This document shows, in pieces, positions 1,743 through 29,936 of a DNA stretch of 34,501 nucleotides. Location: contig PS015012.1 in NCBI GenBank assembly GCA_048213135.1, forward strand, positions 86,301 to 120,801, given 5' to 3'. Made by a program: the position numbers and the translations under genes. Every line of letters starts with the position of its first letter. Position 1 is the stretch's first letter. The DNA comes from Reclinomonas americana ATCC 50394. Its lineage: Eukaryota. The notes below the pieces were generated by a model. It was not told the origin of the DNA. It ran no database searches and saw only the letters and a program-made list of their open reading frames with translations.

Positions 1743-3795
1743 ATGGACGTGTCCTTTGGAGGAGCCTCTCTGGGCATCCTCGTGTGCCAGAGTGTGTATG
1801 CAGCGCTGCTGGTTGCCGGTTTGTCGTGGATGATTGTGTGGAGAAAGGTGTGTTTTTTTCGCGCGCGCGTGTTACTCTTTATCTCACTGCAGCTGTGTGT
1901 GTGTCTCTCATAGAGACCACCAGTGGCACAGCGGTCTGTGTGGCTGGTGTCCGGCTCGGTGATCGGACTCTCCATGTTTATCTGCTTCTCGGTGTTTTTC
2001 CGCGCCAATGCCAACGGACCCACACTCAGTCACACCGCCGACTTTATCTCCGACATTGGTGGGCACTCTCACACACACACACACTCTCACACTCTCTTCC
2101 TCTTCTAAATTCATGTGCAGGATTCACGTGTTATTTGGCAAGCACATTTCTGCGCATTTATCGCCTGCGTGTGCTGTACGATGCCAACATTGAGAAGGTG
2201 TTGATGAATGAGCAAGAACATGGTGCACTGGCACAGCCGCACTCCCTGGATGCAGCAGGAGCTGGTTTGTGAGGGGCGCGACTCTACCAATTATGCGATG
2301 CAAATGTGATTTGCGTTGGTCGCCTGAAACATTGCGTGCGCATGCAGCGGATGTCAGGCGGAGTATGCAGGCGCGCGGAGCTGCTGTGATTGCGAGTTAC
2401 CTGGCGGTGCACAAGCGCAAAATAAGACCGGCAGTGCTCTGGTTTTGGTTCTTGGCCATCATGTGCATACGCATCTCCATGGCTGTGTTCGGCTTTTTCC
2501 GCACGGATCCGGTGCAAGTTTCGCCTCTTGCATGCTGCAACTGTGGTGTTTAATGGTTGACCGTCGTGCGCAGAATGTGTTCTCGTATTTGGACACGGTG
2601 ATGGGCTCGCTGACCTCGGCCATCTTCATCGTTGTCTTCATCATCTACTCGTACCGGCTGCGCGTCGTCAACGACGCATTCGGGCAGACGCTTGAGCTGT
2701 ATACCACGTCCACTGCCAGTATCATTGGATGTGCCATTGATCAGTTTGTGGAGTGGGGCGACACGGCCACGTGGGCCGACTGGCTCTTTGAGGCCCTGCA
2801 GCTGCTGCTGTTCGTGCTGGCAGTTTGTGTGCCCATCTTCGTCAGCTTCAAGTGCGTACAACATCGCCTTCTCCATCTTCCCCCCTCCCACTCACTCTTC
2901 TCTCCGCAGATGGGCGCGGCACAGCACCCTGCACACGATCCGCAACACCAGCCTGCAACGACAGCGATCACGAGCCGCGTCCGGCTTTTCTCTCACCGAA
3001 TCGCTCACGGAGAGTGTACTACCGATCCTCGAGGACTCCGAGGGCCGTGCAGCACTGCACGCGTTCCTCGTACGCGAATTCAACGTCGAGTTGCTGTATT
3101 TTTATGGTGCGTATCGATGAAACTCATATCGGATATTAACCGTGCTCACTGCAACTCGTGGGCGCACAGACGACGTGGTGCGCTACAAGAAGCTGGGTGA
3201 GTGATCGCACGTATTCTTTGTCTCCCTTCTCTCTACAAAAAAGTAACATGCGCGTGCGCGTGCACTCAGCGGCTGAATCTAACAACTCGGCGACGCTACT
3301 GTCGACGGCCAGAGTCATGGTGGCCAAGTACTTTGAGGTGGACAGCGTCATGGAACTGAGTTGCGTGATACGCCACGTCTCGTCTCACTCGCCGCGGTGC
3401 GCCTGCGCCCTCATTGTGTGCATCGAATGAGCAGATGTTTCGGCGCCCGAGCGGGACTCGGTCATGAACGCTGTGCGGGGCGGAGTTGTATCCAAGTCCA
3501 CCTTTGACAGGTTTCGTGAGCGCGCGCGTATGTGTGTTGTAACGAGGGCGGCGACTCAGCGTCTATTCGTATGCGATGGTGCAGACCGTTTCACTCGATC
3601 ATGCTGACCATGCACCAAGACACGTATCCGCGCTTCGTCAAATCGGCAGAGTACAAGAGCAGTCTCCAACGAAGTCTGCTGTCCAGCGCCCGACTCAACT
3701 TCCTCCAGGGAAGCGATATGGAGCTCAGAAAAATCATCATGGACGAGGACGCTGAAGAGGAGGAGGCAGCTCGCGTTCTCGGCGCGAGGAGATAG
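1743..3795 (+). CDS. Multi-pass membrane protein with C-terminal RGS domain (7TM-RGS type); about 10 exons
   Basis: Hydrophobic helices with a WRK-RPPVAQRSVWL motif, then an RGS box: ILEDSEGRAALHAFLVREFNVELLYFYDDV..Y..L...KYFEVDSVMELNVSAPERD...FDRPFHSIMLTMHQDTYPRFVKSAEY. Introns restore frame. Confidence 0.85.
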
Positions 3796-3833
3796 CGATT
3801 TCCATTACACAATTTACTAAAATACTATGTTGC

Positions 3834-5219
3834 TCAGTCAGGCGATCGCGTCTCGAAAAGAGTGGTGTACACCTCCGTGGTGCCTGCTGCAGGTCCACTC
3901 AGCAGTGCGTGGGCGCGCTCCAGCTCAGCGACGACGCGTGGTAGGGTGTCGCGCGTCAGGTGGCGAGCGGCATTCCACCCCGGCGCCACGGGATCCTCCA
4001 CCGCAAAGAGCCACGCCTTGTGGTCACGCCGGAAATCGGTCTTGGTGCCAAGCGCTCCGCTGGTCACCGACAGGACGTGCTTGCGCATGTCAAAGGCGCC
4101 GCCGACGAGGAACTCAAAGAAGCCGCGCACCAGCGCACCGAGTGTCAGGCCGCTCTCATCCAACTCGCCAAACAGCTGCTGCCATCGCCAATCGTCGTCC
4201 TCGTCTTGCTCCTCCTCCCCCTCCTCCCCCTCTGCTCCCTCTGTGTCCTCCACCTCCGCGTCCACACACTCGTCGTAGTCTTCGTAGGATGACGCCATGC
4301 GCGTGTCGACAGGCGGCAGACCGTGAATCACTTGCAAGTATGCTGCGCATGTACGGAACATGAATGATGTTTCTCGGGTTGGAAGAGCACGCCGCCACGA
4401 ACCAACAGCTATCAAGCTCCAGCAGTACGAGGTGGGCGTGCCGTCGCGCGAACAGTTGATCGCTCGCCGCTTGGCCCAGTGTCTGCAGCAGGTCAGCAAA
4501 AGGAGAGAACGCACGACAGCGGAGGAACACAACGCACTTGACCAGCAGGATCAGGAGTCGCGCGACTGCAAACTCCTCGACAAAGAGGCGCAGGAGGTGC
4601 GTGTTGCACAGCGCGTCGGTGTTGTTGACACTAACATCGGCATCGAAACCACTATCGGAAAAAACAAGAAGAGACAACTCAGTTGCTGCAAAAGAGAGAT
4701 GCAACAAGCTTCCAAGGCCGCAACGTCTGCGTATCACGAAAGCGCACAATAGGCACGCGAGCCTCATCCACGAGCTCCACATTCTCAAAAGCTCCGCTCT
4801 CCGCGCGCCTCTTGCTGACCAATTGCGCGCGCACCTGCTTCAGCACGCGGATCTGCATGTCGACCGAGTGCCACTCGCTGTGCACAATGCACACGTCGAC
4901 ATCGACGTTGCCACGCAAGGCCATGCCCGAGATGAGGCTGCCAAAGACGTGCACGCGTGGAGCACTCCTCGCTGAGCTCATAATTAGCTGCGGACAACAC
5001 GCTCTTTGTCTCTCTCTCTCTCACACACACACCTGCAAGCTTGCTCGCGGCAGCCTCCACCAGTGGCCGCACACGACGAGCGACAAAGAGCAGTGCTCGT
5101 CGTCGAGTGCGCCAGGGCTCGGCGACTTGGCGCACCACTGCCCGCACATGCGCCTCCAGCTCAATGGGATCACAGGCGACTGCCTCTGCTACTCTCCGCC
5201 TGCTGCCTCCACTGGCCAT
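3834..5219 (-). CDS. Cid1/GLD2/TUT-family terminal nucleotidyltransferase; 5 exons
   Basis: Pol-beta motif VHVFGSLISGMALRGNVDVDVCI, then ARVPIVRF, DADVSVNN, LVKHWAKRRAIN..GTPTSY, and PAP-associated LGALVRGFFEF...VEDPVAPGWNAAR. Confidence 0.9.
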
Positions 5220-5334
5220 TCAGAGAGCGTTGTTAAAGCGGGGGGAGACACGATGGATTTTTAATTTTCCTTGGTTGGTTGGTTGAAGAAGAACAGACCA
5301 AGACGTGATGCAGGCAGCGCGCGCATGCGCACTC

Positions 5335-7288
5335 TCAACGCCGCGTCTGCTGTTGCCGCAGCAGGGCCTCGGCAAAGCCCTCCAGGTCCTGCTCGATCTC
5401 GCCCGTTCTTGTCTTTACCCACTGGTCGAGCACCGTCTGCTCATCGCGCAGGAATTGCTGGAGAGCCACGTCCACTGCGTTGCGACTGGTCAGCATGCAG
5501 CAAGCGAGAGGGAGACGTGGAGGAGACGGAGAAGGGAGAACCTTGCTCGAGGAGCTGCTTCCGATAGGCGTCCACGCGTGACTCGGTTTCATGCGCAAAC
5601 TCCTGGCTCTTCTGCTTGAGATCAGAGAACAAAAACTCACGCCGCTCCTGCAACTTGCGCTGTCCCAACATGTCCAGGCCCTGCGCACAAACACAATGAG
5701 GACGCAGCATTCCGGCAGGATGTCATGTGGAAGGCTGGTCGCACCGACACTTGCGGCAACCGTGGTACCGGCGGCAACGAGGCCGGTGCCATGGGTGCCG
5801 GCAGCAGTGAACCGGGTGCCTGCCTTGGTGCCACCGCTGGCATGCCCGCCGACATTCCACCCTGCACAATCCACACGTGTAGGTAACACAGCAAGCCGAG
5901 CACGCGTCACACGATGCAGGCGTACGCGCGCGCGCAAACCATTCCAAACGATTGCGGTGCGGCCGAGTGCGCGCCGCCCATAAACCCAGTCGCCACTGAA
6001 GGCGCCCCTGCCTCTGTTTGTGATGTGCACGCAAAAAGCGGTGAGTAAAGCAAACCACCATCGACCGAGAAGACGCCCAGCGACGCACGATTGCGCATGA
6101 ATGGCATGCCGGGTGCCACAGAGCCGCCCATTGGATCGTGAGCCTGTGCGCGGCAAGCAAATGAGCGTCGACACTTCCTCACACACTCTCTCGCTCACTC
6201 ACCTGAGGGAAAGGAACAGCTGGCGGCATCATGCCTGGTGCGCCCATGACACCACCCACCGCGACACCCATCATGCCCACCGCTCCATGCCCACCCATCA
6301 TGGGGAACTGCTGCTGCTGCTGCTGCTGCTGCGGCATGGTCATCGCCGCGTTGGCTTTCCGCAGCACCGTGATGCTCAGTGGCACCGCACTCAACTCCCC
6401 GCTCGTCGTTTTCGCTGACACACAGCAGTGAGCCAAACGACAACGCAAGAGCGGGAGGCTGAGAACGCACTGGGATAGCCGACCACGGTAATGACATCGC
6501 CGGGGACCAAGCTGTCAACGACACCGCGCAGATCTCCACGAAAGTCACTGACACGCACACACCCACACACATTGAGCGTGGAAGGATGGAGCAAAAGGCG
6601 CGCGCACACACGCAACGTCTGATCACACATGAGCTGAAACTTGACGACATCGTCGCCCTTGATGTCGACGAAATGCAGACGCTGGTTCACCGTTCGCTTG
6701 CGCGTCACCGTGCCTACACACACACAAGTCAGCGCACACAGAGATAGAGAGAAGAGCACGCGCGCGCGCACGCACCTCCAATCGTCTCCACGCACTGCCG
6801 CCGTCGCTCATTGGCCACCACCGACGCGTACTTGGTGCGAAACTCCTCCAGCGACAGACGCCCTCCACTGCCACCACCACCACCACCATGTCGCTGCACA
6901 CACATACACACCACTCAACACACACATGCGCGCGCGTGTGCATCACTCTCACAGACACACACACCTGCACAGCAGCCGCGGCCGCTGCAGCCGCTGCTGC
7001 AGCTGCTGCTGCCTGTTGCGCCGGCGTTGTTGTTGTTGTTGCCACTGCCACTGCTGCAGCACCTCCATTCACTCTTCGCTGTTGCTGCTGCAGCTGCTGG
7101 GGAGCAGCAGGTGCTTGCTGATCAGTCTTTTGTCGCTTGAAATGAGGTTCGCGACTGTCATCCTCCTCCTCCTCGTCGTCCTCGTCTTCGTTATGGTTCC
7201 TCTCGTGGTCAGCCTCCTCCTCCTCTTCCTCTGCTCCTTCTCTTGCTGGATCGTCGTCTTCTGCGTCGTCACGCAACGCTCTCTTCAT
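5335..7288 (-). CDS. Protein with acidic/low-complexity N-terminus, LysRS-type anticodon-binding OB fold, Q/M/G/P-rich region and coiled-coil C-terminus; no synthetase catalytic domain
   Basis: Spliced LSLEEFRTKY...GTVTRKRTVNQRLHFVDIKGDDVVKFQLMCDQT.DFRGDLRGVVDSLVPGDVITVVGYPTKTTSGELSAVPLSITVL resembles the class II LysRS N-terminal OB domain (GDIIGVxGxPGKTKxGELS). Confidence 0.75.
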
Positions 7289-7360
7289 TTGTGTGCGTGT
7301 GTGTGAGTGAAATTTTGCGCGATCACACTGCAGCGTTGTGTGTGTGCGTGAGCGCGCGTG

Positions 7361-7814
7361 ATGTTGATCCCTGTGCGGTGAGTCATCTTGCGTTCGTGCT
7401 GCAAACGAGCGCGCGCGTGTGTGTGTGTGTGTGTGCCTGCGCGCGCGCGTGTGTCACATGTCGTGCTCATCGCTCTCTCTCTCTCACACGCGCACAGGTG
7501 TTTCACGTGTGGCAAGGTTGGATGCTTCGTGTAGCTCGTTCATGCCTCCCCCTGCGCCGCTCACGCATGCGTTGCAGGTCATTGGCAACAAGTGGGAGCT
7601 CTACACCAAGTTGCTAACAGAGCAGGACTACCCCGAGAGGTTCGTCGTCGTCGTCGCATCCCACTCTCTCTCTCACACACACGAGTGTTTGACTGTGAGC
7701 GTGTGTGGTGTGCGCAGTGAGGCACTGGACGAGCTGGGACTGCGACGATACTGCTGCCGTCGCATGTTGCTCACGCATGTGGATTTGATTGAGAAGTTGT
7801 TGCAGTATCGCTGA
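7361..7814 (+). CDS. RPB10: RNA polymerase I/II/III subunit RPABC5 (Rpb10); exons 7361-7377, 7498-7516, 7578-7639, 7718-7814
   Basis: Spliced [21 protein letters not shown]...[32 protein letters not shown]. Confidence 0.96.
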
Positions 7815-7961
7815 TGTGTGCTGCTGCACGCGTGAATGAATCGCACCGCCCACAAGGCCCTGTTTAGTGACCCCTCCCTCTGGCACACACGTCGTCGTCC
7901 ACGCAAGTTCCAAGTTGAACAAGACGTCGTCCTGCACGCACGAGAAGAGTGTGTCACAAGC

Positions 7962-8613
7962 ATGAGTGGAGACGGCGATCGTGCGGCTGCTCGCATGGCA
8001 GAGGCCATTGGGGGGCGCACGGGTGTGCCCGGTCGCACGTTCGGGCAGCGACTGCGCGCGCATCGACTGCAATTCGCCACTGTTGCGCAAAGAAGCAACA
8101 CGCTCCTCTCTCATACACACACTCTCACTCACACACACACACGCATGCGCAGGCGGCACTGGCGGGTCTGTCATTCGGCCTCTCCTTCCAGGTGTACATG
8201 CGCTCGCGGCGCGTGCAGGAGCTGGAGGGTGAGCTGGAACGCGAGAGATACGCAAGGTCGGTGATTGCATCCACTCTCTCTCTCTCTCTCTCGTGTGGCT
8301 CACGGAGGAGGGACGGTGGGGCAGGCAGCAGACGGCGGCGGTGGCCACCGATGTGGCTCGTGTGCTTTCGGAGACGGCGTCGACGGGTGAGGCCGGCGAG
8401 CGGGGACGACAGGCGCTGCGGATGCTGGAGCGCATTGACGATAGCATGCAACAGCAGACGACGGCAGTGTTTGACCAGCAACGCAGTTGCGTGGACACGC
8501 TTGTATCGTTGTTGACTTATTCGCGCTCATCAAGAGCAACAGGTGCCCCTCCTCCTTCGGCCTCGCAATTACCGCCGAGCGACGGACAACCCAAGCCCGT
8601 CCGCATGGTTTGA
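7962..8613 (+). CDS. Small hypothetical protein with one hydrophobic segment followed by a coiled coil; probably 3 exons
   Basis: MSGDGDRAA...RLQFAT|AALAGLSFGLSFQVYMRSRRVQELEGELERERYAR|QQTAAVATDVARVL...; microsatellite-rich introns preserve frame; no family recognised. Confidence 0.55.
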
Positions 8614-8749
8614 TCTCTCTCTCTTTCCCCTTTTCTTCTCCCGCACATCAATCGTTTAGAATGCCCGACATATACATTGAGTGGTAATCGCCTTCAAACT
8701 TTCTACGGGACTGGCAAAACATAGTTGATTAGGGGTGGGTGGGAGTGTT

Positions 8750-12496
<3,747 letters not shown>

Positions 12497-12773
12497 GTTT
12501 GGAGAGAAGAGGGATTTGTTGTCTGTGTGCGTGGAGCGCGCGAGAATTCAGTGATCACACACACTCAACGGGAAGAAAAGACACACGCCCACGCGAGTGG
12601 GAAAGGAGACAAGGGAGGGAACGCACTGGAAGAAAGTTGAAGTTGGAAGGGTTTCGCAAGTCGGAGGGATGCGAAGGGATAACGAATGCGTGCGAATGAG
12701 AAGCGAAGATAACTGGGTCGGTTGATTCGGCGGAGGTTCGAAATCACTTTTTTCACACACACACTCACACGCA

Positions 12774-13442
12774 ATGGCGGCTTCTGCATCGAACGGCGGC
12801 ATGGAGGACCTGCCCGACTTTGAGGACCTGGACGAGTTGTTGCAGGGTCACGCCGAGCCGGAGCTCGTTGAGAAGAAGTTCCGTCACTCTTTATCTTTCT
12901 CTCCACTCTTGTCTCTCGCTCTCCGCTGTGAGCATTCCTACACGCTCCTTCTTTGTATCCTGTGTGTGTATGTTCTCCTGCACAAAGGAGAAGTGTGTGT
13001 GTGTGTTTGTGCGTGCGCTGTCTCGGGAAATGGCAAACCCCCGGCGTGTGCGTGTCTTCTCCGCACCCGGCTCCTGTGCTTCCTGCCCCGTGTCGCGTCG
13101 TGCCTGCCGAAGCAGTGTGCGGAGGAGAGGAGAGGAGAGGGCAAGGGGCGTGGGTCACAGTGCGTGCAACTGAACCAGGTCCAGTTGGTGTTGTCCGTCA
13201 CGCTGGAACTCGCCCCCCTCTTCCCTCCTTGCACTGTTCGTTGAGCTTCTCGGGGCACGCACTTGTTCCTCCATGCCTCCTCCTCTTCTCCCTCTCCTTT
13301 CTCCACCTCGCGACAACACACTTGTCGTTGTTGTGTCTTTCGTCCCGACATGCCGCCATGCACATGTCCGCCTCCTCCTCGCCCTCCTTCCCCCTCGTGC
13401 CACTCACCGCACTCTGCTGCAACACACAGGGCTAATGCCTAC
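12774..13442 (+). CDS. UAP56: UAP56/SUB2 DECD helicase, exon 1 (12774-12877) and start of exon 2 (13430-13442)
   Basis: MAASASNGGMEDLPDFEDLDELL...EKK|ANAY continues directly into [11 protein letters not shown] on the inverted contig. Confidence 0.8.
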
Positions 13443-14574
13443 NNNNNNNNNNNNNNNNNNNNNNNNNNNNNNNNNNNNNNNNNNNNNNNNNNNNNNNNNN
13501 NNNNNNNNNNNNNNNNNNNNNNNNNNNNNNNNNNNNNNNNNNNNNNNNNNNNNNNNNNNNNNNNNNNNNNNNNNNNNNNNNNNNNNNNNNNNNNNNNNNN
13601 NNNNNNNNNNNNNNNNNNNNNNNNNNNNNNNNNNNNNNNNNNNNNNNNNNNNNNNNNNNNNNNNNNNNNNNNNNNNNNNNNNNNNNNNNNNNNNNNNNNN
13701 NNNNNNNNNNNNNNNNNNNNNNNNNNNNNNNNNNNNNNNNNNNNNNNNNNNNNNNNNNNNNNNNNNNNNNNNNNNNNNNNNNNNNNNNNNNNNNNNNNNN
13801 NNNNNNNNNNNNNNNNNNNNNNNNNNNNNNNNNNNNNNNNNNNNNNNNNNNNNNNNNNNNNNNNNNNNNNNNNNNNNNNNNNNNNNNNNNNNNNNNNNNN
13901 NNNNNNNNNNNNNNNNNNNNNNNNNNNNNNNNNNNNNNNNNNNNNNNNNNNNNNNNNNNNNNNNNNNNNNNNNNNNNNNNNNGAGAGGAAAGGGTGCGAT
14001 GCAGAGAAGAAGAAGAAAGGGAAAAAACGGCCATCCCAGTCGCCCGGCGTCGACCCCCGCCACAAACAAGGGTCGGCAGCCTCCAGCCAGTCGCCGCCAT
14101 CGTTATCACTTCCACGTCGTCAACCGAGATCGATCCTCCACGCCCCCGCACAACCGCAGTGCACACCACAGCCACACACGGCCGCAAGACGGGCGGGATA
14201 CCACGAGCAAGGCGCACACAAGGAACGAAACGAGCCGCACAGCGCAGGAGACCGGCTCGGCTCCCAATGCTCCCCCTCCACAAAAAAATCAAGCACGCGA
14301 CAAAACACGAGCTGAAGTGGTCGCGGAAAGATTGTTGCGGAAGGCGCACAAGAGAGGCAAGGAAGGTGGTGGTGGTGGTGGTGGAGGCGGCGGACGATGA
14401 AAACAAGGAAACCCACGCGCGCGCGGAAAAAATGCAAGCCTCCGCCACTCGACGACACCGTTGCTCACACAACAACAAAGTGCCTCCAGTCCGTGACGTG
14501 GTGGTGGTGGTGGTGGTGGTACAAAAATGACGCTCCCGCTCCCGCTGCATCTTCTTCCTCTGCTCGTTGCTCAC

Positions 14575-15424
14575 CCTCGCTGGGCGCCTCCCAACCCTTG
14601 TCGGTGATGGCGCGCAAGATCTCCGGCTTGAGCGAAAAATCGCGGAAGCCCGAGGTGGAGACGCCGGCNNNNNNNNNNNNNNNNNNNNNNNNNNNNNNNN
14701 NNNNNNNNNNNNNNNNNNNNNNNNNNNNNNNNNNNNNNNNNNNNNNNNNNNNNNNNNNNNNNNNNNNNNNNNNNNNNNNNNNNNNNNNNNNNTTATAGAA
14801 TAGAGGAGGGGTGGCGCACAGCACACGCAACGTTCTGCATGAACTTGTTCACAATCGGCAAAATGTCCTTGCCAATGGTGGCCGAGAACATCATGACTTG
14901 CTTCTTGTGCGGGGTGGCCTTGAACACCTGCTGCACCTGGCGGCGCATGGCCACGTTGGCCAGCAGGTGATCGCACTCGTCGAGCACAAAGTGCCTGACG
15001 TGGCTCAGGTTGAGCGCCTTGCGCTCGACAAGGTCCATCACACGGCCGGGAGTGCCGACCACAATGTGTGGCGGCTTCTCCTTTTGCAGCATCTGGACGT
15101 GCTGATCCACAGGCACACCTACATGTCGTCCACGGGTGAGAACAGGCAGCACGCGAATGTCGACAAGATTAGACTCACCGCCCAAGAACACCATGATGCG
15201 GGGCGCCGGACTGGTAATGTACACCGACAGCTGCTCCAACTCGCGCTGAATCTGGAACGCCAGCTCGCGGGTGTGGCCGAGCACCACGGCCAACGTCTGG
15301 TCCTGGTCAAAGTCGAGCTGCTGCAGCAAGCTGATCACGAACACGGCCGTCTTGCCGAGACCCGACTTGCCCTGGCAGATGAGGTCCGAGCCGAGGACGG
15401 CCTGTGGGATGGCCTCGAATTGCA
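14575..15424 (-). CDS. UAP56: UAP56/SUB2 exons on two inverted contigs (14668-14575; 15424-15179; 15118-14832); C-terminal half not in the assembled sequence
   Basis: [88 protein letters not shown]. Confidence 0.93.
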
Positions 15425-15573
15425 CTGAACGCCGAGCAGGAACAAGGTGGGCACGATGTGGATAGATGGAGGAAGGGTGGTGGTGGTGGTGGTGGTGCGT
15501 AGGAGTGCAAGTGCATCACGGTGCAAAAGTGAGAAATGGTGTGTGTGCGTCTCNNNNNNNNNNNNNNNNNNNN

Positions 15574-15905
15574 ACTTATTGTGCGTCGGCGGTGCTGCTG
15601 CCGTCGTTGACGTCGACCGCTCAATGAGTTTACTCACTTTTTTTGCTTGCTTTTGCATGCAGTTGACCAACACGGGAACGCTGTCGGCGGTGCTGACCGT
15701 GGTGTTTTTTATTGGCCATGTTGCGTGTCTGTGGCGCGCCGAAATGCAAACCTTTCCCCGTCATCTAACTCGCGTACCTGTGCTGCAGGCGATTGCGTTG
15801 AACATGGAGGAAAAGTGGCACCTCAGCGGCCGCACGTGGGTCTGGACGGTGCACATCTGCCTGGCGCCGTTCTTTGTCGAGCCTCTACTGGCGCTCATCG
15901 GCTGA
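15574..15905 (+). CDS. 3' fragment of a membrane protein, Mpo1/DUF962-like (tentative)
   Basis: VLTVVFFIGH|AIALNMEEK...ICLAPFFVEPLL resembles the QFIGH..E.....LAPFFV pattern; the 5' part is lost in the gap. Confidence 0.4.
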
Positions 15906-15940
15906 ACAATACACACATACACACAGTAGTGCTCCATCCT

Positions 15941-18900: not shown

Positions 18901-20891
18901 CGTACGCGCCGTGAAGGAGCACGGTGCCCCATGCACTGGCGTCGAGTGCCGACGAATCTGCACCAATAGTAATGCATGAGAACGCGGAAGAGACAGGCGC
19001 TGTATGTACCCCCCCCNNNNNNNNNNNNNNNNNNNNNNNNNNNNNNNNNNNNNNNNNNNNNNNNNNNNNNNNNNNNNNNNNNNNNNNNNNNNNNNNNNNN
19101 NNNNNNNNNNNNNNNNNNNNNNNNNNNNNNNNNNNNNNNNNNNNNNNNNNNNNNNNNNNNNNNNNNNNNNNNNNNNNNNNNNNNNNNNNNNNNNNNNNNN
19201 NNNNNNNNNNNNNNNNNNNNNNNNNNNNNNNNNNNNNNNNNNNNNNNNNNNNNNNNNNNNNNNNNNNNNNNNNNNNNNNNNNNNNNNNNNNNNNNNNNNN
19301 NNNNNNNNNNNNNNNNNNNNNNNNNNNNNACCAGGTGGTGGTGGTGGAGAGGCGGATGGGACACACACTCGTCGCAAGCGTGTGAGGGAGGGTCAGCGAT
19401 TGCTGGCGCTGCTGACAGCGAGCGAACGCGCTGCAGTGCACCACGATCCGCACCGGCAGACTCTGCGTGCGCATCGACGAGCATCGACCTCGTCGTCTGC
19501 AGCAGGCACAGGGCCGTCGACACCGGCAGGCTCACAGCGACGAAAGTCGACGGGAATGATGCTGACGCAGCAGTCGGTGACGGGCGAGGAGGCTGTGGAT
19601 CGCCTGCTGGAGGAGATGGATGTGGTCGAGATTGAGCCGCGACGGAGACGAGTGTCGGCGGCGTCGTCGTCGTGTCGTGTGGTGGTGGCACCCAAGGCGG
19701 CGACGACAACGACAACTGCAGTGACGGCGGCGACGGCGGCCACTGCCGGCAGCAGTCGCCGTGGTCGTGGTCGCGGTCGCGGTCGCGGTCGAGGTCGCGG
19801 TCGTCGCGTTGTTCCTGGTCGTCGACCGCTTCGTGTTCGCGACAGCAGTAGCAGTGGTGGCAATGACAGCAGTAGTGACGATGATGACGAGGATGAGGAT
19901 GAGGACAGCAGCGATGACGATGATGATGAGGACGACAGCAGCGACGACAGCAGCGACGATGACGACGAGGAGAGCAGCGAGGAAGAAGACGACGCGAGCT
20001 CCGACATGTCGAGCGACGACAGTGAAGAGGAGGAGGAGGAGGAGGAGACAGCAGTGGTTCGACGGCGGCGTCTGCGTGACGCCAAGGAGCGTGCTACGCA
20101 TCGTGCCTCAGGTGCGTCGCACGAAAGCAACGGTTCGAATGGTGTGAATGCTCATTGCTGTGCACACAGAACTCATCATGCGACGCATGCGGTCGGCGGC
20201 GTTTGACGTGGTCTGCAAGTGGCTGGATGCGGCAGTGGAGGTGCGTATGCTTGTGCTTGTCGGCTACACTGTCGATTCTAACGCGCCGCACGTCATGCAG
20301 GCCAGCTACGTGGATGCCACTCGCGGGCCTGCCGCACAACTGCGGCAATTCTTGCAGTTGTCGGGTGCCGCCTCTGCAGAACGTGTGCGTGTTGCTCTGC
20401 TGCTGACAGGTATAAGTGTGCGACGGGGGCGGGGGGGGGGGGGGGGGGTACATACGNNNNNNNNNNNNNNNNNNNNAGCGAACAGTGGCGGTGGTGGCTC
20501 GTCGTCGTCGTCGTCGTCGCCCTGCAGCAGCTCGTCCAGGTGCTCCACCGCTGCGCGCGCCACAGGTGAGCGAGTGATGGGGAGAGTGGAATGCACACTT
20601 CACATACCATCCTCCGAGACCACCACAAAGGCGAGCACCATCAACGCCGACTGCCGGTGCCGTGGCTCGCCCACTGCCGCACTCAACGTGTGCACCAGGG
20701 CGCCATCACGCCACCGCACGACATCCGCCCGCTCCGCGTGTGTCGCCACTGTGTTGCTCGTTATCAAGTGTTGTCGAGGGACATCCACAAGTGTACGCAC
20801 CACGCAACGCCTCACACAGCTGCTGCAGTGCCACCGCACGCTGCTCGGCATCGACCGCAGCTGCGGCGGCCACCATTACTTCCTCGAGCAT
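15941..20891 (-). CDS. ORC3: Origin recognition complex subunit 3, multi-exon, with long N-terminal extension; segment 19330-20456 inverted
   Basis: VRVALLLTD; VVITVLQTEIFEYGALSDLVYTLG..IPFVVV; PLALHPTVAEFILQTYDCITASVQSLI; NEFCFY..FNPDFR; FKLYKEAGRKINLADLFRAF; LQARFFFAVGELMHLGFL. The start codon (20891 or 20876) is uncertain. Confidence 0.85.
16050..16129 (-). other. U12-type (minor spliceosome) AT-AC intron, 80 nt, last intron of ORC3
   Basis: 5' end ATATCCTTT, branch-site-like TCCATAAC (16073-16066) about 16 nt before TGCAC; removal restores LQARFFFAVGELMHLGF. Confidence 0.9.
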
Positions 20892-21161
20892 CGTTGGAGA
20901 CAAGTGATTGAAACACAATGGAAGGATCGACCAACAAAAAAAGAACAGCGCAGCGCCGTAGCCCCTTTTTCACTTCCTCCCACTTTCACCAACTGCATCG
21001 TCGCCCAGCCACCACAAGCACGCACGCACGCACAACTAGCACAGAGAAAAAACGCAAGAATGAATACACAGTGAAGGAAAAAGAGAGTGAAGAGAGGCAA
21101 GCTGCACTGCCACTCCTTCTCCCTCCTCTTCCCTCCCTTCTCCTCCTCGTCGTCATCATCG

Positions 21162-21788
21162 TCACTCCCTTTGCGTGGCGAGCTTTGCACGCTCCCGCCA
21201 CTCGGCGAGCAGCGAGTACTTCTCCTCGAGCGCCTTGCGCATTCTCTCCAGCACCTCCTCCAGTCGCGTGGTGTTCTCGCGAATCGCCGGCAGCACCTCG
21301 CCTACTGTGCGCTCCACCAGCACACCGCCCACCATGCGGAAACACCGCCGTGCGCCATCGAGCTTCTCCAGTTGTCCCATCAGCGTACTATATAATGTGA
21401 AGAGAGTGGCATGTGTGTGCGTGAGCGATCAAGAGTGTGTGTGTGTACGCTGGGGAGAGGGGTGAGCGCGCGTGTGTGTGTGTGTGGAGAGAGGACGAGC
21501 GCGTGTGTGTGTTGTGTTGTGTATGAACATGTCGGTGGGCGCACGCAACTGGTGCTCGCTGCGTTCCCGCTCCAGGTCTTGCACCTTTTGCGAGTGCGAC
21601 GACACCTCCTTCTGCAGCGCCTCGTACTTTTGCACCACCTCCTCAGGGCTCATATCCTCAGCATGTGCAGAAGATGATGATGATGATCCTGAGCCAGATC
21701 CGCTGGCTCCTCCTGCTGGTGATGATGCTGCAGGTACGACCGCTGCTGCTGCTGCTGCTGGTGCTGCTGGTGGCGCCGCGTCGCTCAT
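21162..21788 (-). CDS. PFDN2: Prefoldin subunit 2; exons 21788-21550 and 21387-21162
   Basis: SEHHTLMGQLEKLDGARRCFRMVGGVLVERTVGEVLPA signature. Confidence 0.93.
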
Positions 21789-21880
21789 ATGCTGTTGAGT
21801 AAGTGTGTGCCGTAATCCACCGGTTCAGTCGGGTGAACGAATTGCGTTCATTTCCCCCACCCGCACAATCAACAGCGAAA

Positions 21881-23124
21881 AGTGCGTCTGCTCTCTGTGG
21901 CCTCTCGCGGGTCACTGCCCGCTCTCTGTCTCCGTCTCTGCGTGTGTGTGTGCGCCTGTGTGTGTCGTGTGTTGTGATGGGCTTGTGCGTGTCTGTGTGC
22001 GTGCGTGTGTGCGCCATGCGCATGCCGTACATTTGCATGGCCACCGCCCTCGCTCTCCCCGTGCCCCCCTCTCCACGCAGTTTGTGTGTCTGCGTGTGTG
22101 TTGCGGGGTGTTTGTCTCTCTGTGGAACGAAAAACAGGCTTCTCTCTTTCTCGAGTCATGATGGGGCGCTGATTGTGTTTGTTTGTTTTGCAGTGGTGCG
22201 ACACAACAACATGATCCCCAATGCCCACTTCCACAAGCAGTGGGACCGCCGCGTGAGGACGTGGTTTGACCAGCCGGCCAAGAAGGTCGCTCGCCGCCGC
22301 GCTCGTGCCGCCAAGGCAAAGCAGGTCAGCTTGTCAAATGATGATGATGCTGATGGATGACAGAAATCAAGGCCGCTGACTCCTTCTCTCTGTGTGTTTG
22401 CTTGTCAAGATCTACCCGCGACCTGTGCAGGGCCCCCTGCGCCCGGTGGTGCGCGCACAGACCGTGCGCTACAACACCAAGGTGCGCGTCGGCCGTGGCT
22501 TCAGCATGCGCGAGCTGGCGGTACGTGGATGATGATGATGTTGGATGATGGGGAGTAGGCCCTGCAGCGCGCTCAATCGGCGACTGTCTGTCTTGTGTGT
22601 GTGAGAGTAGGAGGCTGCCATTCCCAAGCGCTTTGCACGCACCATTGGCATCTCTGTGGATCACCGCCGCAAGAACCGCAGCGCCGAGGGTCTGCAGACC
22701 AATGTGCAGCGCCTGAAGGTTTGTTGTGTGCGTGTGTGTGGTGGAACGGCAGTGCAGGCAGGCAGGCGCGGGTCCTCAATACGTGCTGTGGTGCTAGGCA
22801 TACATGGCCAAGCTGGTCCTGTACCCGATCAAGAAGAACAAGCTGCAGGCTCGCGAGGTCGCCCCGGCTGAGTTCAAGACCCTGGGTCAGGCCAAGGGTG
22901 CTCTGCTGCCGCCCAAGGGCCCGGCTCCCCGCTCGATGGTACTGCTCGCACGCCTCTCCTCCCCACGTATACGCATGAGGATCTCATTGTTGTTGTTGTT
23001 GTTGTCGCAGTCCCGCGCCATCACCGACGCTGACAAGGCATTCAAGGCATACAGCACTCTGCGTAACGAGGCAGCCAATGCCCGGCGTGTGGGCAGCCTG
23101 CTCAAGCGCCGCAAGGACAAATAA
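21881..23124 (+). CDS. RPL13: 60S ribosomal protein L13 (eL13); start codon probably split A|TG by intron 21882-22193
   Basis: [88 protein letters not shown]. Confidence 0.96.
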
Positions 23125-23386
23125 TCAGACTACTGAGCAGCCTCTGGCTCGCGCTACTCTTGCTGTTGTCGTTGTGGGTGCGCATTCCAGCTTGCGCGGC
23201 TGCCTTGGAGGTCACCTTGCACTCACCGCCATTGTATTGGTGGTGGAGGTGTGGTGGTGAAGTATCTTGTGTGGCTGTGTAAGTGAAGACATGCGTTTCT
23301 ATGCACGTGGTCTTGCGCAGGCGCACACTCTGCTCTCCGTTGACAGTGTCGTGTTTGTAGGATTTTTCCCTTCATTTCTCCCTCTC

Positions 23387-24736
23387 TCACATGAACACGG
23401 ACGTGTATGTGGGCACCTGCACAGCAGCCGCGCGGTGAGCAACAGAAGAGGCGGGGAGAGTGCACAGCTGCCGGCGTAACCTTGGATTTGATAATGGGGC
23501 ACGCCTCGGGTCCACCGTGCTCCTCGAGGCACTGCAGTGTTTCTTCGATTTTCGGCTTGAGCTTCTTGTCAAAGGCCTTCTTCGATATTTGACCCACGAT
23601 TTGCACGAGATGCTCATTCAACGACGGTCCCACCGCGCGCGACAGCGACTGAATGGCGTCGAGCGCCGACAGGAACGTCTCCTGATCGGCGCCCAGCAAC
23701 GACACGCGCAGTGGTCCCACCAATTTGTTAAGCAGCGGCGTTACCTTTTCCTCGGCCGCCTGCCCCTCGCGAGTGAGACCCAGGCCCACCACACACACAC
23801 AGAGACATGATCAAAAACTGACCGTGGCGCCCATCATATCCTTCCACGCCAGTCGCGCCATGGTCACATACGGATGCTTGGTTTCGCGCAGTCCATCACA
23901 TACCGTCACCAGCAACTGCGAGTAGTCCAGGTCCACCAGCGGCACATCCCACGTCAGATACATACTCGACGAGGTGTGCTGAATACGTGCCGGGATGGAT
24001 CCGGCATTGTAGGCCGCCTGGAACGGCGTGGCCTTCTTGGAGGGCGCCGCAAACGGATCTTACCAATAACACAAGAACAATGACAATCAGGGCTCTGCCA
24101 CACACACTCATTCCCTGCGCTGACGACAGAGGGACGCACTCACCGACGACCTTGTGCGTGTCATACCGCGAACGTGAGATGCGAGTCGCCGCCGCACCAC
24201 CACTGCTGCTGCCAGCGCCACCATCATCGTCTGTGCAAAAAAATCAGGACAAGGCAGTTGGTGGTCACTCAACTCTTGCTCTCTCTCTCTCTCTCTCTCT
24301 CATAAGGCTCACCAGTAGCAGGTTCCCTCTTACGTGAGGCCGTCGCGGCAGACGCAGCAGCACCGCGTTTGCCAATCTTGCCCGTTGCAGCCGTTGCAGC
24401 CGTTGTTGTTGTCGCCGTCGCTGCGCTTCCTGCACGCCTGGGAGCCGCAGCTCCAGCAGCAGCTGTAGTCGACGAAGAAGAGGAGGCAGTGGCCGCTCGC
24501 ACTCGCACCGACGACGGTCCAACGGATAGTGACGACGAGGAGGGTGGTGNNNNNNNNNNNNNNNNNNNNNNNNNNNNNNNNNNNNNNNNNNNNNNNNNNN
24601 NNNNNNNNNNNNNNNNNNNNNNNNNNNNNNNNNNNNTGGGGCGCGCCGAGGCCGCACTGCCAGTGCCACCGCGTGCGCCTCCAACAGGACCCTCCATCAC
24701 CGTGCTGGAGCCAAAGGAGACTCGCCGCGATGCCAT
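23387..24736 (-). CDS. PACRGL: PACRG-like protein; spans the gap at 24550-24636
   Basis: VDPFAAPSKKATPFQAAYNAGSIPARIQH..LTWDVP..LDY..LLVTVCDGLRETKHPY...VGPSLNEHL..IEETLQCLEEHGG..IIKSKVPTYTS. Confidence 0.88.
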
Positions 24737-24800
24737 CTTTTCCCTTGAGCGACGACAGACAGGAACAAGGACGACGATCAGGACATCATCGCCACCAATA

Positions 24801-26562
24801 ATGCGCGGCACACGCGCGCTCGGCGACTGCACGTTGCCGATCGTGGCGCTGTCGATTGTGGCGCTGCTGTCGTTCATGGGCCTGGTGTGGGTCGGCTTTC
24901 CATCGTCGCCCACGCAGCGCGCATCGTCGTCGTCGTCGTCGTCGTCTGCGTCATCCGCGTCTGCGTCATCATCGCTGTCCCTCACGCCGCCACCACCATC
25001 GCCTTCCGATGCCTCTCGATCGGGCAAGGCCGCTGCTGGTGGTGGTGGTGGTGGTGGAGCGACAGGTCGTGCTCGCGGCACCTCTGCGCAACAACAGCAG
25101 TCGCCAAAGCAGTTTCCGCTCGCTGCCAGGTGGCGTGATCTGTGTCCACTCGGCCGGTGGCTCGAGGCGCAGCCTGTGGTCACTGAGCAGCGTTGCGTTC
25201 GAAGGCTGGTGCCCCGCTCGCGTCGTCTCTCTCGTCTCTCACTCGTTGCGCGCATGCGCAGTCTTGTCACGCATTGGCGAAAACTGTGCGCTGATTGTGC
25301 GCTACCTCGCACCGTGGATGGAGAGCGGCATTAGCGGGGCGGCAGTGGATACGGCACTGGCCAAGTTTGCGCCGAACAAGTCGCGTCTCGTGGTCTTCTT
25401 CTACAATCACGAGAGCAACACACTGGAGTGGGATGTGATGCATCCGACCGCCGACGGCAAGTCGACCAGCGATTACCGAGTGTGCGTTTGTTGTTTGTTT
25501 ACCCAGCGCCTTCCCCTGACTCCCTTCCTGACTCTGCTCTGTGTGTGTGTGTGTGCCTGGCCGTGCAGGAAAAATATCGCACGCATGATCCTGCGTGTGA
25601 TCACTGCCGGGCCGCCACTGTCGCACTCGTTTGTGTTGCCGGTAGAGTGCGACGATGTGCCGAAGCAGCGCAAGAGTCAGTGGGTGCCGTCGGAGCAGCT
25701 GCCGATGCCGCCGTTCTCTGCGGCGTTTCTGGCACACGAGGAGTACTACGATGTGCCGCTGCCGGATTTTGCGTTTGAGAACTGGGAGGCGGCGTCGTTG
25801 GAAGACTACGAGGAGGAGGTGCGGCGAGTGAAGGAGCGAGCCGACAGCACGCCGTGGGAGCGGCGCACGCCAAAGGCCGTGTTCCGTGGCTCGCTGTCGT
25901 CGGGATGGTGGGGCGATGAGCCGAGTCCACGTGCACTGCTGTTCGAGCAGTGTGCCAACGTGACGAGTGTGTGCGATGTGCGTGAGGCGCGCAAGTGGGC
26001 CGGCGCGGACGCCGGTGACGAGGCGGAGCAGAAGCGGCAGGCTGGATATTTGTCGCTGGCCGAGCACTGCGATTACCAGCTCATTCTCTCGCCAGAGGGC
26101 AAGACGTGGACCGCCCGCACCAAATACCACATGTGGTGCGGTTCGGCGTTGGTGGTGCCACGCCATCGCTTCCACGAGTACTGGTGGCCGCTGGCGCGTC
26201 CGGGTGTCGACTACCTGCCCGTGGAGTACGACTCGCGCACGCTCGTGCAGCGCCTGGAGCGCCTGCTGCTGCCGCCACCCCCACCCTCAGAACCCAACAA
26301 GCAAGTGACGGTGGCCGGCACTGGCACCGGTCAGCCACCGCCCGGTACAGAACTACGGCGACTCGGTCTCAACGCTCGCGCGCTGGCAGAGCGACATTTG
26401 ACCCGCGAGGCCGCCCTGTTGTACCTGCGCATGATGCTGGAGATGATTGGTGCGCTGGAGCAACTCGGCGGTTTCGATGTTACTCGGCGGCTCAGCGGCC
26501 GCCCTGTGCCCGTCAGCGAGCTATTACCGCGGTCTCGCTCAAAAGGGCGCGGCGATGGTTGA
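24801..26562 (+). CDS. Type II membrane glycosyltransferase, GT90/CAP10 (POGLUT/KDELC-like); 3 exons
   Basis: N-terminal signal anchor and Ser/Pro stem, then DVPLPDFAFENW...PWERRTPKAVFRG...LSLAEHCDYQLILSPEGKTWTARTKYHMWCGS...EYWWPLARPGVDYLPV. Confidence 0.88.
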
Positions 26563-26653
26563 TATTAGAGAGAGTAAATGGCATCGAAATTGGCAACTTC
26601 CGTGCATGCCAACGTCCTGCGTCCCGTGCGGCCGTTTAGGCGAGATCTCAGGT

Positions 26654-29167
26654 ATGACGTCGTTTGAGCTGGAACACGCCATCGGCTTCTCTGGCAACGT
26701 GCCACACAGTGTGCACTTTCACCCCAACGGCCAGGATTTCGTGTATGTGGCGGGCGGGACCATTGGTGCGTTGCGCAAATCTGTTTTTTCTCTTCTCCTC
26801 TCTTCCTGCTCACTGTGCACATATAGTGATCTGCGACCTCAATGACTCCCACAATCAAGTGTTCTTGCGCGGTCACGATGACGAGATCACGTGCCTTGCG
26901 ATTTCATCGTCGGTCAGTGCTTGTCAATCACCCTCCTTTCCCTTGTCTCTCTGGCATCTCCACTGAGTGCGGAATCGTGTGGATAGGGTCGGTATCTGGC
27001 GTCGGGACAGCGAGGCGACAACTCCGACGTGATTGTGTGGGATTTCGAGGCGCGATCGATGCTGTACCGCTTCAGTGAGCACGATCATGGGATCTCGTGT
27101 GTGTCGTTCTCGGAGGACGAGGTGCATCATGTCGCCTTCTGCTGCTGTCGCCTCGTTGGTTGCCGCTAACAGCTGTTGATTGCGACAGAAACTGCTGGTG
27201 TCGGCCGGCGATGCGCACGATCGTCGCCTGATTGTGTGGGACTTGTCGTGCGGTGGCATGGTGGCGTTCCAGTCGGCTGTGGAACCCGTGGACACGGTGA
27301 CCATGGGCGGTTTCGAAAAGGGTACGCTTCGCCTCTCCTCCAACCCAGCAGCGTGGTTGTCGCGCTGAAACGAGAGAGATGAGTGCAGATGTTAAGCGGC
27401 GGCCGACTCGCAACTACGTGATCGCTACTGGCGGCAACAAGAAGCTCACGCTGTGGACGCTGGATCCGTACGGTGGTGAACTGCGGTCCGATATCGTTGC
27501 GTTGTGCAGGCGCGCGGCATGCGCTTTCCACGTGCAGCACCTGATCCCTTCCCCATGCAGATCAACATTGCATCCATCACGCGCGACTATCGTGCACTGC
27601 GCTTCTCCGCCGACGGCGAATTCCTCTACGCCGGCACCGACTCGGGCGACTTTGCCGTGATTCAGATGAAGAGTCTGGTGTTTGCCGGCACGATTCGTGC
27701 GTCGGCCAACGGCATCAAGTCGCTGGTGAGCTGCGCCAAGCGCACACTCTTTGTGCCGCATGTGTGGATGTATGTGCTTATTTTTCCCGTCCGTCGCAGG
27801 TCACACTGCGCAATGGTGGTCTCTGTGTGGGCGGAGGCGACGGATCGCTGGTGGCATATTCAGGGCAGGGCAAGGAACTGACGGAGGACTCGCGCACCTA
27901 CCTACAGGGTGCCGTCATGTCTCTCAGTGTGACGCACGACGAGGTACGTGTGGATCTTGGCGATTGTCGTCTGACACGCACACTCACTCTCTTGTGACGC
28001 AGGTGGAGCTGCTGGCTGGCACGTCACGAGGCTTCCTGCATCGCGCACGAATTCGCGATCTCATGGATCTGGTGCTGCTCGAGGCGCACTCGGCGCCGGT
28101 GACCGCAGTGGCGTACAACAGTGGCTTCTCCGATCGATTCGTCACCGTGTCTGCGGATGGCTCGTTCCGCCAGTGGGACTCCTCCGACTACACCACCGTG
28201 TGCAAGGGCGAGACGCACGGCTCACCCGCCACCTGCGTCGTGTATTTGACCGAAGTCATTCTCGTTGGCTGCGAAGACGGCAAGATCCGGTTCGTGCGCG
28301 CTCCCATCGTGCTCGCCCCCCTTCGCACCCAGTCGACTGATCTCTGCAACGCAGGTGTTTCCACTCCGACACGGGCGAATTCTTGTGGGATCTCACGGCA
28401 CACAGCCGAGCCAAGATCACGGCACTGGCGGCGTCGCGCAACGAAAAGTTCTTCATCACCGGCGCCGCCGATGGTGAGATTCGTGTGTGGCTGCTGCGGT
28501 CACGGGAGATGGTGTCGAGTTTCCGGGAACACTCGTCGGGCATCACACAGGTACATTTTCTGTAGTTGCGCATCGTGGTCTGCTCCGTCGTTGCCACCTC
28601 ACGTGCGTGCGTGCGTGCGTGTGCAGCTGAAAATCTTTGAGGACGACGCACATGCACTGTCGAGCAGCCGTGATCGCTCCATGTTTGCCTGGGATCTGCG
28701 AGTTGCGATGACCCCGTCAATGTGTCACGACTTCTTTCCATCGTGTTTGACCGCCTGTGTGTTCTCGCAGGCCGAGCGCCGTGTCAACACCATGTCGCAA
28801 CGGCAAGGAGCCATCAATGACTTTGCGCTGGTTGCTGATCAAACACAAGTGCTCTCTGTCGGTCAAGACAAGCGCATCTCGTTGCGTCGTCGGCCACTGG
28901 TGTGAAGCAGTAGCGCTGCCGCGTCTGACTCGTGCGTGTAGATACTGGGACTTGCGAACGGCGGCCCCCTACAAGCTGATTGACGCGGCGCACTCGGATG
29001 ACATTCGGACGATCTCAGTTCGTTGCTTGGCATGCGTGTCCCCTGTGCTTCCATTTTGCGTGCTCACTAGCGTGTGCAGTTGAGTCACGGCAATGCCTAC
29101 GTGGCCACTGGCAGTGCCGACCAGATTGTGAAACTGTGGGACTTTGAGGGTGCTCTCCTCTCCGAAG
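26654..29167 (+). CDS. CFAP52/WDR16-family ciliary WD40 protein (13 exons here; last exon inverted at 29936-29824)
   Basis: FELEHAIGFSGNVPHSVHFHPNG..QVFLRGHDDEITCLAISSSGRYLASGQ, many WD repeats, and SVGQDKRISYWDLR. Confidence 0.87.
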
Positions 29168-29823
29168 GTACACCAGCAGCTGCACACACGCACACACTCC
29201 TTCACCTGTCTCCGTCGTCGTCCACTCACGCACTTGNNNNNNNNNNNNNNNNNNNNCCGTACCACAGTGCGCCGGCTCGAGCGTTCAGCCACCTGCCGGA
29301 GGAGCAGTCGACGGTGGCGGAGGAGATGGCACGCGACGCCCTGCGCGTGCACATGAGTCGGGCGTTTGCCAACAGCGCTGCCACACACGCCTCGAGCACC
29401 AGCAAGTCGAGTCGCATGTCGGCGCGCGGCTCGCCATCCCCCTGGGCGCCGCCTCAATCGTGTTCCTCTTCCACTGCGGTACGGCGACAGACTCGTCAGT
29501 GCGATCGCGCCAATGTGTGAGAGGCTGACGCCGGTGACATCAACAAGGTCATGACTCTCGAGGTTACGACGCACTCACGAGCGAACATTTGAGCTGCGCG
29601 CGACAAGCGCAGCTCGGCATCGGAACCAATCTTTCTTTTTTGCTTGACGACGGAAAGCACCCCGATGCAGTCGTCGAGTTATGATTGTCTCTCTTTTAAC
29701 CCTTTGCGCCTCGTTTTATGAAGTGAAACGCGATGACGTGTGAACGATTGATATTTTTTCATCCAAGAACATGAACCACGAGGCAACATACACGAGCGAG
29801 TGAAATGAGCAGCGACGACGCAC

Positions 29824-29936
29824 TCAGCCCGGATACACATTCCACAAGAACACACACATGTCGTCGCCGACGGAAACCAGTTGTCGGTCGTCGGGTGAGA
29901 ATTGTACACGATTGATGGCCGCCGAGTGACCAATGC
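29824..29936 (-). CDS. Terminal exon of the CFAP52-family gene on an inverted contig
   Basis: G|GC ATT GGT CAC gives EGIGHSAAINRVQFSPDDRQLVSVGDDMCVFLWNVYPG*, completing the last WD repeat. Confidence 0.9.

Follow-up and report, generated by a model that had tools for sequence, protein, structure and literature searches.

The stretch of DNA considered here, referred to below as the window, comprises 34,501 bases of contig PS015012.1 from Reclinomonas americana ATCC 50394 (GenBank assembly GCA_048213135.1), with ~56% G+C and 11 runs of N. Its genes are closely packed and rich in introns, and our subject is the 5' splice sites (donors) of those introns, in particular the donors that begin with GTTGCG or, more generally, with GTTNCG, which we call class 2. 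Next to the main donor, GTGCGT, the GTTGCG(T) donors very probably form a real and abundant second class of GT-AG donor, a conclusion drawn from reading frames, family profiles and statistics within this one 34.5-kb window.

Several of the genes can be named from their domains. Pfam identifies an MTPAP-like nucleotidyltransferase, a DEAD-box protein, prefoldin subunit 2, a ParcG-family protein and ribosomal protein L13e, and a Helicase_C gene, a GT90 glycosyltransferase and a WD40 gene likewise carry domain names assigned by a tool. The WD40 gene, called CFAP52-like here, matches the PDB structure of CFAP52 (entry 9d5n, E=8.7e-6) with one exon alone aligned; a protein database search with its sequence gave zero matches, and the ParcG exon gave none against the PDB at E up to 0.01. 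For the short exons (24-73 amino acids) of the RGS-like, OB-like and WD40 genes, Pfam returned no family match. The labels RGS-like, OB-fold-like, ORC3-like and RPB10-like are our own readings rather than assignments confirmed by a tool, and stand for what these genes may be.

Coding strands were read in three-frame displays, and junctions were fixed with scripts that list the frame-compatible acceptors. The resulting catalogue holds 69 donors from 15 hand-built gene models; an acceptor was assigned for 66 of the donors, and these 66 introns with both ends are GT...AG by construction. Fourteen of the spliced models, hand-built as they are, have an open frame with zero phase mismatch, and the fifteenth crosses N gaps and a scaffold piece that appears to be wrongly oriented. 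Catalogued introns are 43-120 nucleotides (nt) long, plus one of 162 nt and one of 1038 nt, and have a GC content of ~55%. Two sites from a preliminary description of this stretch (12878 and 15720) were left out of the catalogue, as were six further junctions: one intron each in the ORC3-like gene (its last), the gene at 32346 (its first) and the gene at 7961 (its second), a tandem GTGTGCGT donor at 20383/20385, the junction of the first exon of L13e (eL13) and the tail of the CFAP52-like gene past the gap at 29237. A frame plot of third-codon-position G+C (GC3) across the window gave no discrimination.

The 69 donors fall into 28 hexamer types. GTGCGT is the commonest (17 donors) and GTTGCG the second commonest (11), followed by GTGAGT (5), GTTCGT (4) and GTGAGC (3); each of the other 23 types is present in one or two copies. 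GTTGCG is found at 11 of the 69 donors versus 11 of the 1564 sense-strand GT sites in these genes that are not donors (odds ratio 27, Fisher p=1.7e-10), and for comparison the odds ratio of GTGCGT is 24. From the share of TGCG among the 4-mers of intron interiors (0.92%), 0.63 of the 69 donors would be expected to read GTTGCG; if donor positions were independent, the expectation would be 0.36. The preliminary description had considered that CG-rich introns with generally degenerate positions +3 to +6 might account for the frequency, and the count of 11 lies far above both of these expectations. When the comparison is confined to the 24 donors that have no in-phase alternative, GTTGCG (5) is nearly as common as GTGCGT (6). 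Both strands of the window together contain 38 copies of GTTGCG, with T as the next base in 14. The earlier inspection had listed sixteen GTTNCG donors among about 85 introns and taken them for an abundant class: all sixteen hexamers are present and 14 of them are exon ends in our models, that is, 14 of the 69 donors. On this catalogue, about 16% of the window's donors would be GTTGCG, and about 20% GTTNCG.

What sets the class apart is the position of its CG. Twenty-five donors have the dinucleotide at +4/+5 and 15 have it at +5/+6; +3 is T in 14 of the latter (Fisher p=7.5e-7), in agreement with the preliminary description, where these donors were said to look like the usual motif with one extra T after GT. 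The exception is GTGTCG at 5750; with an in-phase GTGCGA lying 6 nt downstream of it, the assignment may be wrong. The bases preceding CG are G, T and A in 11, 2 and 1 of the GTTNCG donors, versus 18, 4 and 3 of the GTNCG donors. T is present at +7 in 7 of the 11 GTTGCG donors versus 7 of the 27 non-donor copies of the hexamer, and at +6 in 17 of the 18 GTGCG donors. On the exon side, G at -1 is found in 45 of the 58 other donors versus 0 of the 11 GTTGCG donors, which have C (6), A (4) or T (1) in its place (p=1.4e-6). This missing -1 G is an observation new to this analysis; it can safely be stated as a class without strong selection for G at -1, and avoidance of G is not implied.

Apart from their donors, the class-2 introns are ordinary: they are 59-75 nt long (one has 162 nt), with acceptors and GC content like those of other introns. 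The branch word YTRAY is present upstream of the acceptor in 5 of 10 class-2 introns, in 24 of 56 others and in 12 of 69 exon control windows; its degeneracy is too great for it to tell genuine introns from spurious ones. An origin as a family of introner-like repeats was considered and rejected, because class-2 introns share no sequence past the motif: local alignment scores between class-2 introns (mean 8.5, maximum 21) resemble those between class-2 and other introns (mean 8.6, maximum 23).

Some further occurrences of the word were seen along the way. At two main-class donors, 26766 (+) and 17556 (-), GTGCGT runs on as GTGCGTTGCG, with GTTGCG nested 4 nt inside, and three more copies of GTTGCG stand 13-17 nt before acceptors (18145 on the minus strand, 25245 and 33518 on the plus strand). 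In the donors at 5939 (-), GTTTGCGC, and 17310 (-), GTTTTGCGCG, GCG comes after two and three T's, respectively; these two may extend a series GT(T)nGCG, or may arise by chance.

The sixteen GTTNCG sites differ in how closely they can be pinned down (on the minus strand, the coordinate of a site is that of the G of GT). Nine of the 11 GTTGCG introns have to be excised for the frame to be open, and at five GTTGCG sites (3360, 4724, 27496, 28702 and 8082) an in-phase alternative donor is absent. Two junctions, 4724 and 21549, are backed by homology found with tools, and frame or family context supports the sites at 28881, 25192, 3511 and 23480; those at 6616, 12272, 14831 and 2518 are ambiguous.

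The first of the two homology-backed junctions belongs to the phase-2 intron 4652..4724 (-) of the non-canonical poly(A) polymerase-like gene (73 nt, donor GTTGCGG). Against the Pfam profile MTPAP-like_central, the match of the upstream exon covers positions 38-112 and stops at residue 97 of the exon's 98, and that of the downstream exon covers positions 116-138 and starts at its residue 2; the end residues and the split codon exactly bridge the gap in the profile. The second is in prefoldin subunit 2 (PFDN2), where intron 21388..21549 (-) has 162 nt, donor GTTGCGT and phase 2. Residues 2-48 of the upstream exon correspond to residues 8-54 of chain 2 in PDB entry 7wu7, a weak match (E=0.37), and residues 4-69 of the downstream exon correspond to residues 59-124 of the same chain (E=3e-14). 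Once unaligned and split-codon residues are counted the join is gapless against 7wu7, with Pfam Prefoldin_2 matched at 37-99.

Three class-2 introns lie in the CFAP52-like WD40 gene: 27496..27560 (+), with 65 nt, donor GTTGCGT and phase 0; 28702..28770 (+), with 69 nt, donor GTTGCGA and phase 0; and 28881..28941 (+), with 61 nt, donor GTTGCGT and phase 2. A frame switch is required at 27496 and at 28881. The intron at 28702 is open in frame, and the case for it consists of the WD-repeat context and its intron-like ends. At 28881, use of an in-phase GTGAAG at +21 would add 7 residues within the end of a WD repeat. Two more are found in a gene that we read as a membrane anchor followed by an RGS-like domain. 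Intron 3360..3434 (+) (75 nt, GTTGCGT, phase 1) would, if read through, lead to a stop after 23 codons, and the spliced gene is open. Intron 3511..3584 (+) (74 nt, GTTTCG, phase 2) has in-phase alternatives at +21 and -15; the exon spacing there presumably fits the RGS fold, by our own reading and not by a tool.

The remaining supported sites are spread over three genes. In the GT90 glycosyltransferase gene, intron 25192..25261 (+) (70 nt, GTTGCGT, phase 1) provides the frame switch required between the signal-anchor exon and the Glyco_transf_90 exon, and the sole in-phase alternative donor would leave an intron of 40 nt. The last intron of the ParcG-family gene, 23417..23480 (-) (64 nt, GTTACG, phase 0), follows a 93-residue exon in which the Pfam ParcG match (70-176 of 183) ends at residue 92, and precedes a last exon of 9 codons; an in-phase GTGCAC lies at +15. 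Intron 8082..8152 (+) (71 nt, GTTGCGC, phase 0) is in a small gene with no family or homology, where a frame switch is required.

Among the ambiguous sites, the candidate intron 6548..6616 (-) (69 nt, GTTGCGT) is open in frame, has an in-phase GTGCGC 9 nt downstream of its donor and is flanked by exons that gave no Pfam family. Intron 12214..12272 (-) (59 nt, GTTGCGC, phase 1) lies in a DEAD-box gene, within the N-terminal part rich in Gly, Ser and Tyr; a frame switch is required, and an in-phase GTGCGT at +18 would shrink the intron to 41 nt. In the second DEAD-box gene, the donor 14826..14831 (-), GTTGCGT, comes directly after the DEAD domain, with its acceptor inside the N gap 14669-14792; the Pfam DEAD match (2-163/167) stops 11 residues short of the donor, a stop codon follows 12 codons on, and an in-phase GTGCGC is present at +12. 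For 2518..2573 (+) (56 nt, GTTTCG), an in-phase GTGCAA lies 6 nt upstream, and homology gives no guide. The two sites outside the catalogue were not confirmed as donors. The candidate intron 15720..15788 (+) (69 nt, GTTGCGT) is open in frame, has CTAAC at -24, terminates in ...tgctgcag and shows no homology; for the proposed donor 12878..12883 (+), GTTCCG, a downstream exon was sought as far as the N gap at 13443 and none was found.

The L13e gene served as a control on the method. Its exons join continuously at positions 74|75 and 110|111 of the Pfam profile, and at the latter the donor GTTTGT at 22719 (+) is used despite an in-phase GTGCGTG 9 nt downstream; by this continuity, the genome prefers an upstream, non-consensus donor in at least one case. 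The four donors of the gene (GTCAGC, GTACGT, GTTTGT and GTACTG) show that degeneracy extends to a gene whose expression is presumably high.

Several other features of the window deserve mention. The 1038-nt intron, 9115-10152 (-), has donor GTAAGT, divides the Helicase_C region and is rich in GT/CA and CT microsatellites. The first intron of the nucleotidyltransferase gene, 4988-5030 (-), lies inside a GT repeat, and its donor is ambiguous: the intron has 43 nt with GTGTGT or 37 nt with GTGAGA. A micro-exon of 19 nt, 7498-7516 (+), is found in the RPB10-like gene (again our reading, with no tool support for the family), and the next donor, GTTGGA, follows at 7517. The sole long intron-less gene candidate in the window is an open frame of 738 codons at 29759-31975 (-), of low complexity and rich in Ala, Ser and Pro. 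Two places suggest scaffolding problems. A DEAD-box helicase core is encoded on the plus strand at 10914-11692, between the N runs 10528-10913 and 11693-11892, and what is apparently the same DDX5-like gene has its N-terminal exons (12496-11893) and C-terminal exons (10527-8750) on the minus strand; the piece 10914-11692 is most likely a contig wrongly oriented in the scaffold. In the second DEAD-box gene, the exon with the N-terminal motif, 14575-14668 (-), whose donor GTGAGC joins in phase 1 to the acceptor at 15424, sits downstream of the later exons 14832-15424 (-); either the contig order in the scaffold is wrong or this is a second partial copy.

How might such donors be recognized? Written from -1 to +6, the main donor word is GGTGCGT; written from +1 to +7, the class-2 word is GTTGCGT, and one position differs. 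The sole GT of the class-2 word sits one base earlier, and cleavage would track the GT with the rest of the word staying put. In this mapping +1 G would take the slot of the exon's -1 G, +3 T that of +2 T, and GCGT at +4 to +7 that of +3 to +6. We infer that the register in which U1 small nuclear RNA (snRNA) pairs would lie one base downstream of the usual one, and that cleavage would be set later, at the GU, by U5, U6 and Prp8. At human shifted sites, too, GU cleavage is fixed by U5, U6 and Prp8 after the U1 step. If U6 still paired with the conserved G, it would act six rather than five bases from the scissile bond. With +1 G in the slot facing C9 of U1, the exon would no longer need G at -1, and the absence of that G from all 11 GTTGCG donors accordingly speaks for displacement of the entire motif rather than for a T inserted or bulged out. 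The preliminary description had left the choice between a shifted and a bulged register open; of the two, the shift is what the -1 position supports, and the extra-T version has lost ground. We hold only tentatively, at little short of even chances, that the class is due to a shifted register and not to a bulge or a variant snRNA. A bolder view, possible but doubtful, is that the major spliceosome here routinely accepts two spacings, with U1 and U6 placed one base further downstream in about one-sixth of introns; the ACAGAGA box of U6 would then pair with G+6 and U+7, and the cleavage site would be set by the GU alone.

The closest competitor keeps U1 at G+1 and U+2 in its normal register and bulges one U of +2/+3, so that GCGU pairs as it does in GTGCGT. 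This would account equally for the obligatory T at +3, for CG(T) lying one base in and for the matching spectrum of the base before CG, and experiments in human cells have validated a register with a +2/+3 bulge (Tan et al. 2016, PMC4856993). Nearest-neighbour energies hardly separate the two, the shifted and bulged registers lying within ~0.7 kcal/mol of each other when -1 is not G. They part at -1: in the bulged register a -1 G still pairs with C9 of U1 and should stay useful, and for a hypothetical U1 that matches it would add ~3 kcal/mol; a bulge therefore predicts retention of the G, yet no GTTGCG donor has it. We regard the bulge as unlikely on these grounds. Alternatively, GUUGCGU might be bound in the normal register by an altered snRNA, a lineage-specific or second U1 (or U6). 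In both classes a C occupies the position that is mismatched to canonical U1 (+4 of GTGCGT and +5 of GTTGCG), pairing of either class with the canonical 5' end is poor, and a like idea was raised by Irimia and Roy for the GTGCGTG consensus of Ostreococcus (PMC2483917). However, a single U1 suffices: after the one-base shift the two motifs have just one position that differs, and a special snRNA for class 2 seems quite improbable to us.

Two deflationary accounts were also weighed. Perhaps GT alone is required, and the TGCG or GCG word is favoured by a protein binding site or by local composition. The 28 hexamers among 69 donors speak for such looseness, as do the 82 copies of GTGCGT in the window (1.9 times expectation) and the GTTTGCG and GTTTTGCG donors at 5939 and 17310. 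But the strict link to +3 T, the mirrored base before CG, the +7 T and the missing -1 G fit a displaced seven-base word and not a floating GCG, which makes this a poor prospect. Poorer still is the idea that the class is an artefact of hand annotation, with true donors at nearby consensus-like sites or with introns that are in fact retained coding sequence. It is true that an in-phase GTGCG[CT] follows three of the 11 GTTGCG donors (6616, 12272 and 14831) at a distance of 9-18 nt, and that the reading frame stays open through the introns at 6616, 28702 and 15720. Set against this are the need for excision in nine of 11, the five sites with no in-phase alternative, the two junctions fixed by Pfam and the PDB, and an enrichment that chance does not readily produce.

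Besides those three downstream alternatives, several points weigh against the view that we prefer. All junctions were curated by hand from the DNA itself, by a curator aware of the sites listed in the preliminary description, and every figure comes from 69 donors in one window. A motif-blind, exon-chaining gene finder predicted 84 donors, with GTTGCG at 3 of them (p=0.04); it fuses neighbouring genes and reads through in-frame introns, and its result counts for little given that 24 of the 84 agree with the curation. Non-donor copies of GTTGCG are also poor in G at -1 (4 of 27; p=0.30 versus the donors), and where N in GTTNCG is not G (three donors), the -1 bases are A, G and G, which departs from the pattern. 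Other GTT donors fit no register model (GTTTGC and GTTTGT, two each, and GTTGGA, GTTGCT, GTTCTC and GTTTTG), and with further odd donors such as GTCGCA, GTGACA, GTAACT and GTACTG it is clear that donors are generally degenerate. Finally, whichever the register, class 2 pairs very weakly with the canonical U1 5' end (+0.7 to -2.5 kcal/mol for the best duplexes), as against -9.4 to -13.0 kcal/mol for GTGAGT donors. Either U1 differs in this lineage or U1 pairing contributes little, and it may be that U1 pairing is not what selects class-2 sites. A scan of the window with Rfam gave 0 matches at the gathering score; at E up to 1 there were 8 weak microRNA- or small nucleolar RNA-like matches and no snRNA.

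If a shifted donor is indeed the second commonest type, the genome would offer hundreds or thousands of natural test cases, for a phenomenon that in humans is known from a small fraction of sites and has been shown one minigene at a time. Sequence combined with RNA sequencing could then tell whether U1 register and cleavage position are uncoupled, and whether U6 pairs at another distance from the scissile bond. It could also show co-evolution of the donor motif and snRNA 5' ends, a question already raised for the GTGCGTG consensus of Ostreococcus. On the practical side, gene finders with a single donor matrix would mis-call about one-sixth of the introns in this genome.

Known donor systems resemble class 2 to different degrees. 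U12-type introns also provide a second donor class beside the main one, but their donors carry a long, rigid [AG]TATCCTT word, which none of the 69 donors, in any of the 28 hexamer types, resembles. A search of the literature for GTTGCG and GTGCGT splice motifs gave nothing relevant among the matches listed. The main donor has a close counterpart in the Mamiellophyceae, where Ostreococcus and Micromonas have a GTGCGT(G) consensus (PMC2483917, PMC3879977): both share G|GTGCGT, and a CTGAC-type branch word is present in part of the introns here. Introns differ in their setting, since those algae are described as having few canonical introns per gene and AT-rich introns in low-GC regions, whereas introns in the window are dense and have ~55% GC. 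The low-GC BOC1 introns, defined by <43% GC, were therefore rejected as a match. In the text on donor consensus in these two papers no GTTGCG class is mentioned. A comparison with Plasmodiophora showed likeness in two respects alone, the length of introns and a CTGAC word.

For U6, the nearest precedent is the tandem donor of human STAT3, where a non-canonical register was described and the spacing from the U6-paired G to the cleavage site can differ from 5 nt (PMC11162779). The STAT3 change, which suppressor U6 was used to test, is -1 (4 nt) and concerns one site; for class 2, the change would have to be +1 (6 nt) and occur at many. As that report presents it, the case for an altered U6 register has to date been made at one human site, in the direction opposite to that of class 2 (PMC11162779). 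The curated list of Tan et al. (2016, PMC4856993) gives 54 sites with a +2/+3 bulge and 36 with a +3 bulge among 201,541. Like class 2 they start with GUU, require U at +3 and have the rest of the consensus one base on; unlike class 2, they keep the -1 pairing with C9 of U1 intact, compared with 0 of 11 in what is admittedly a small sample here.

The closest likeness is to human shifted 5' splice sites, where U1 binds one base downstream and cleavage is set later by U5 and U6 (PMC4856993, PMC11162779). In both cases the word lies one base further into the intron, with the G that normally stands at +5 found at +6, and here the exon's -1 G is lost. The displaced word in the window resembles GTGCGT rather than GTAAGT, and its register is read from sequence. 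The preliminary description went too far in suggesting an undescribed second donor class, since shifted and bulged registers are already known; what would be new is their frequency. Class 2 is best read as a high-frequency variant of registers that are rare in humans: the validated non-canonical registers are jointly estimated at 1.5% of 201,541 human sites (Tan et al. 2016, PMC4856993), whereas class-2 donors would make up some 16-20% of those in the window.

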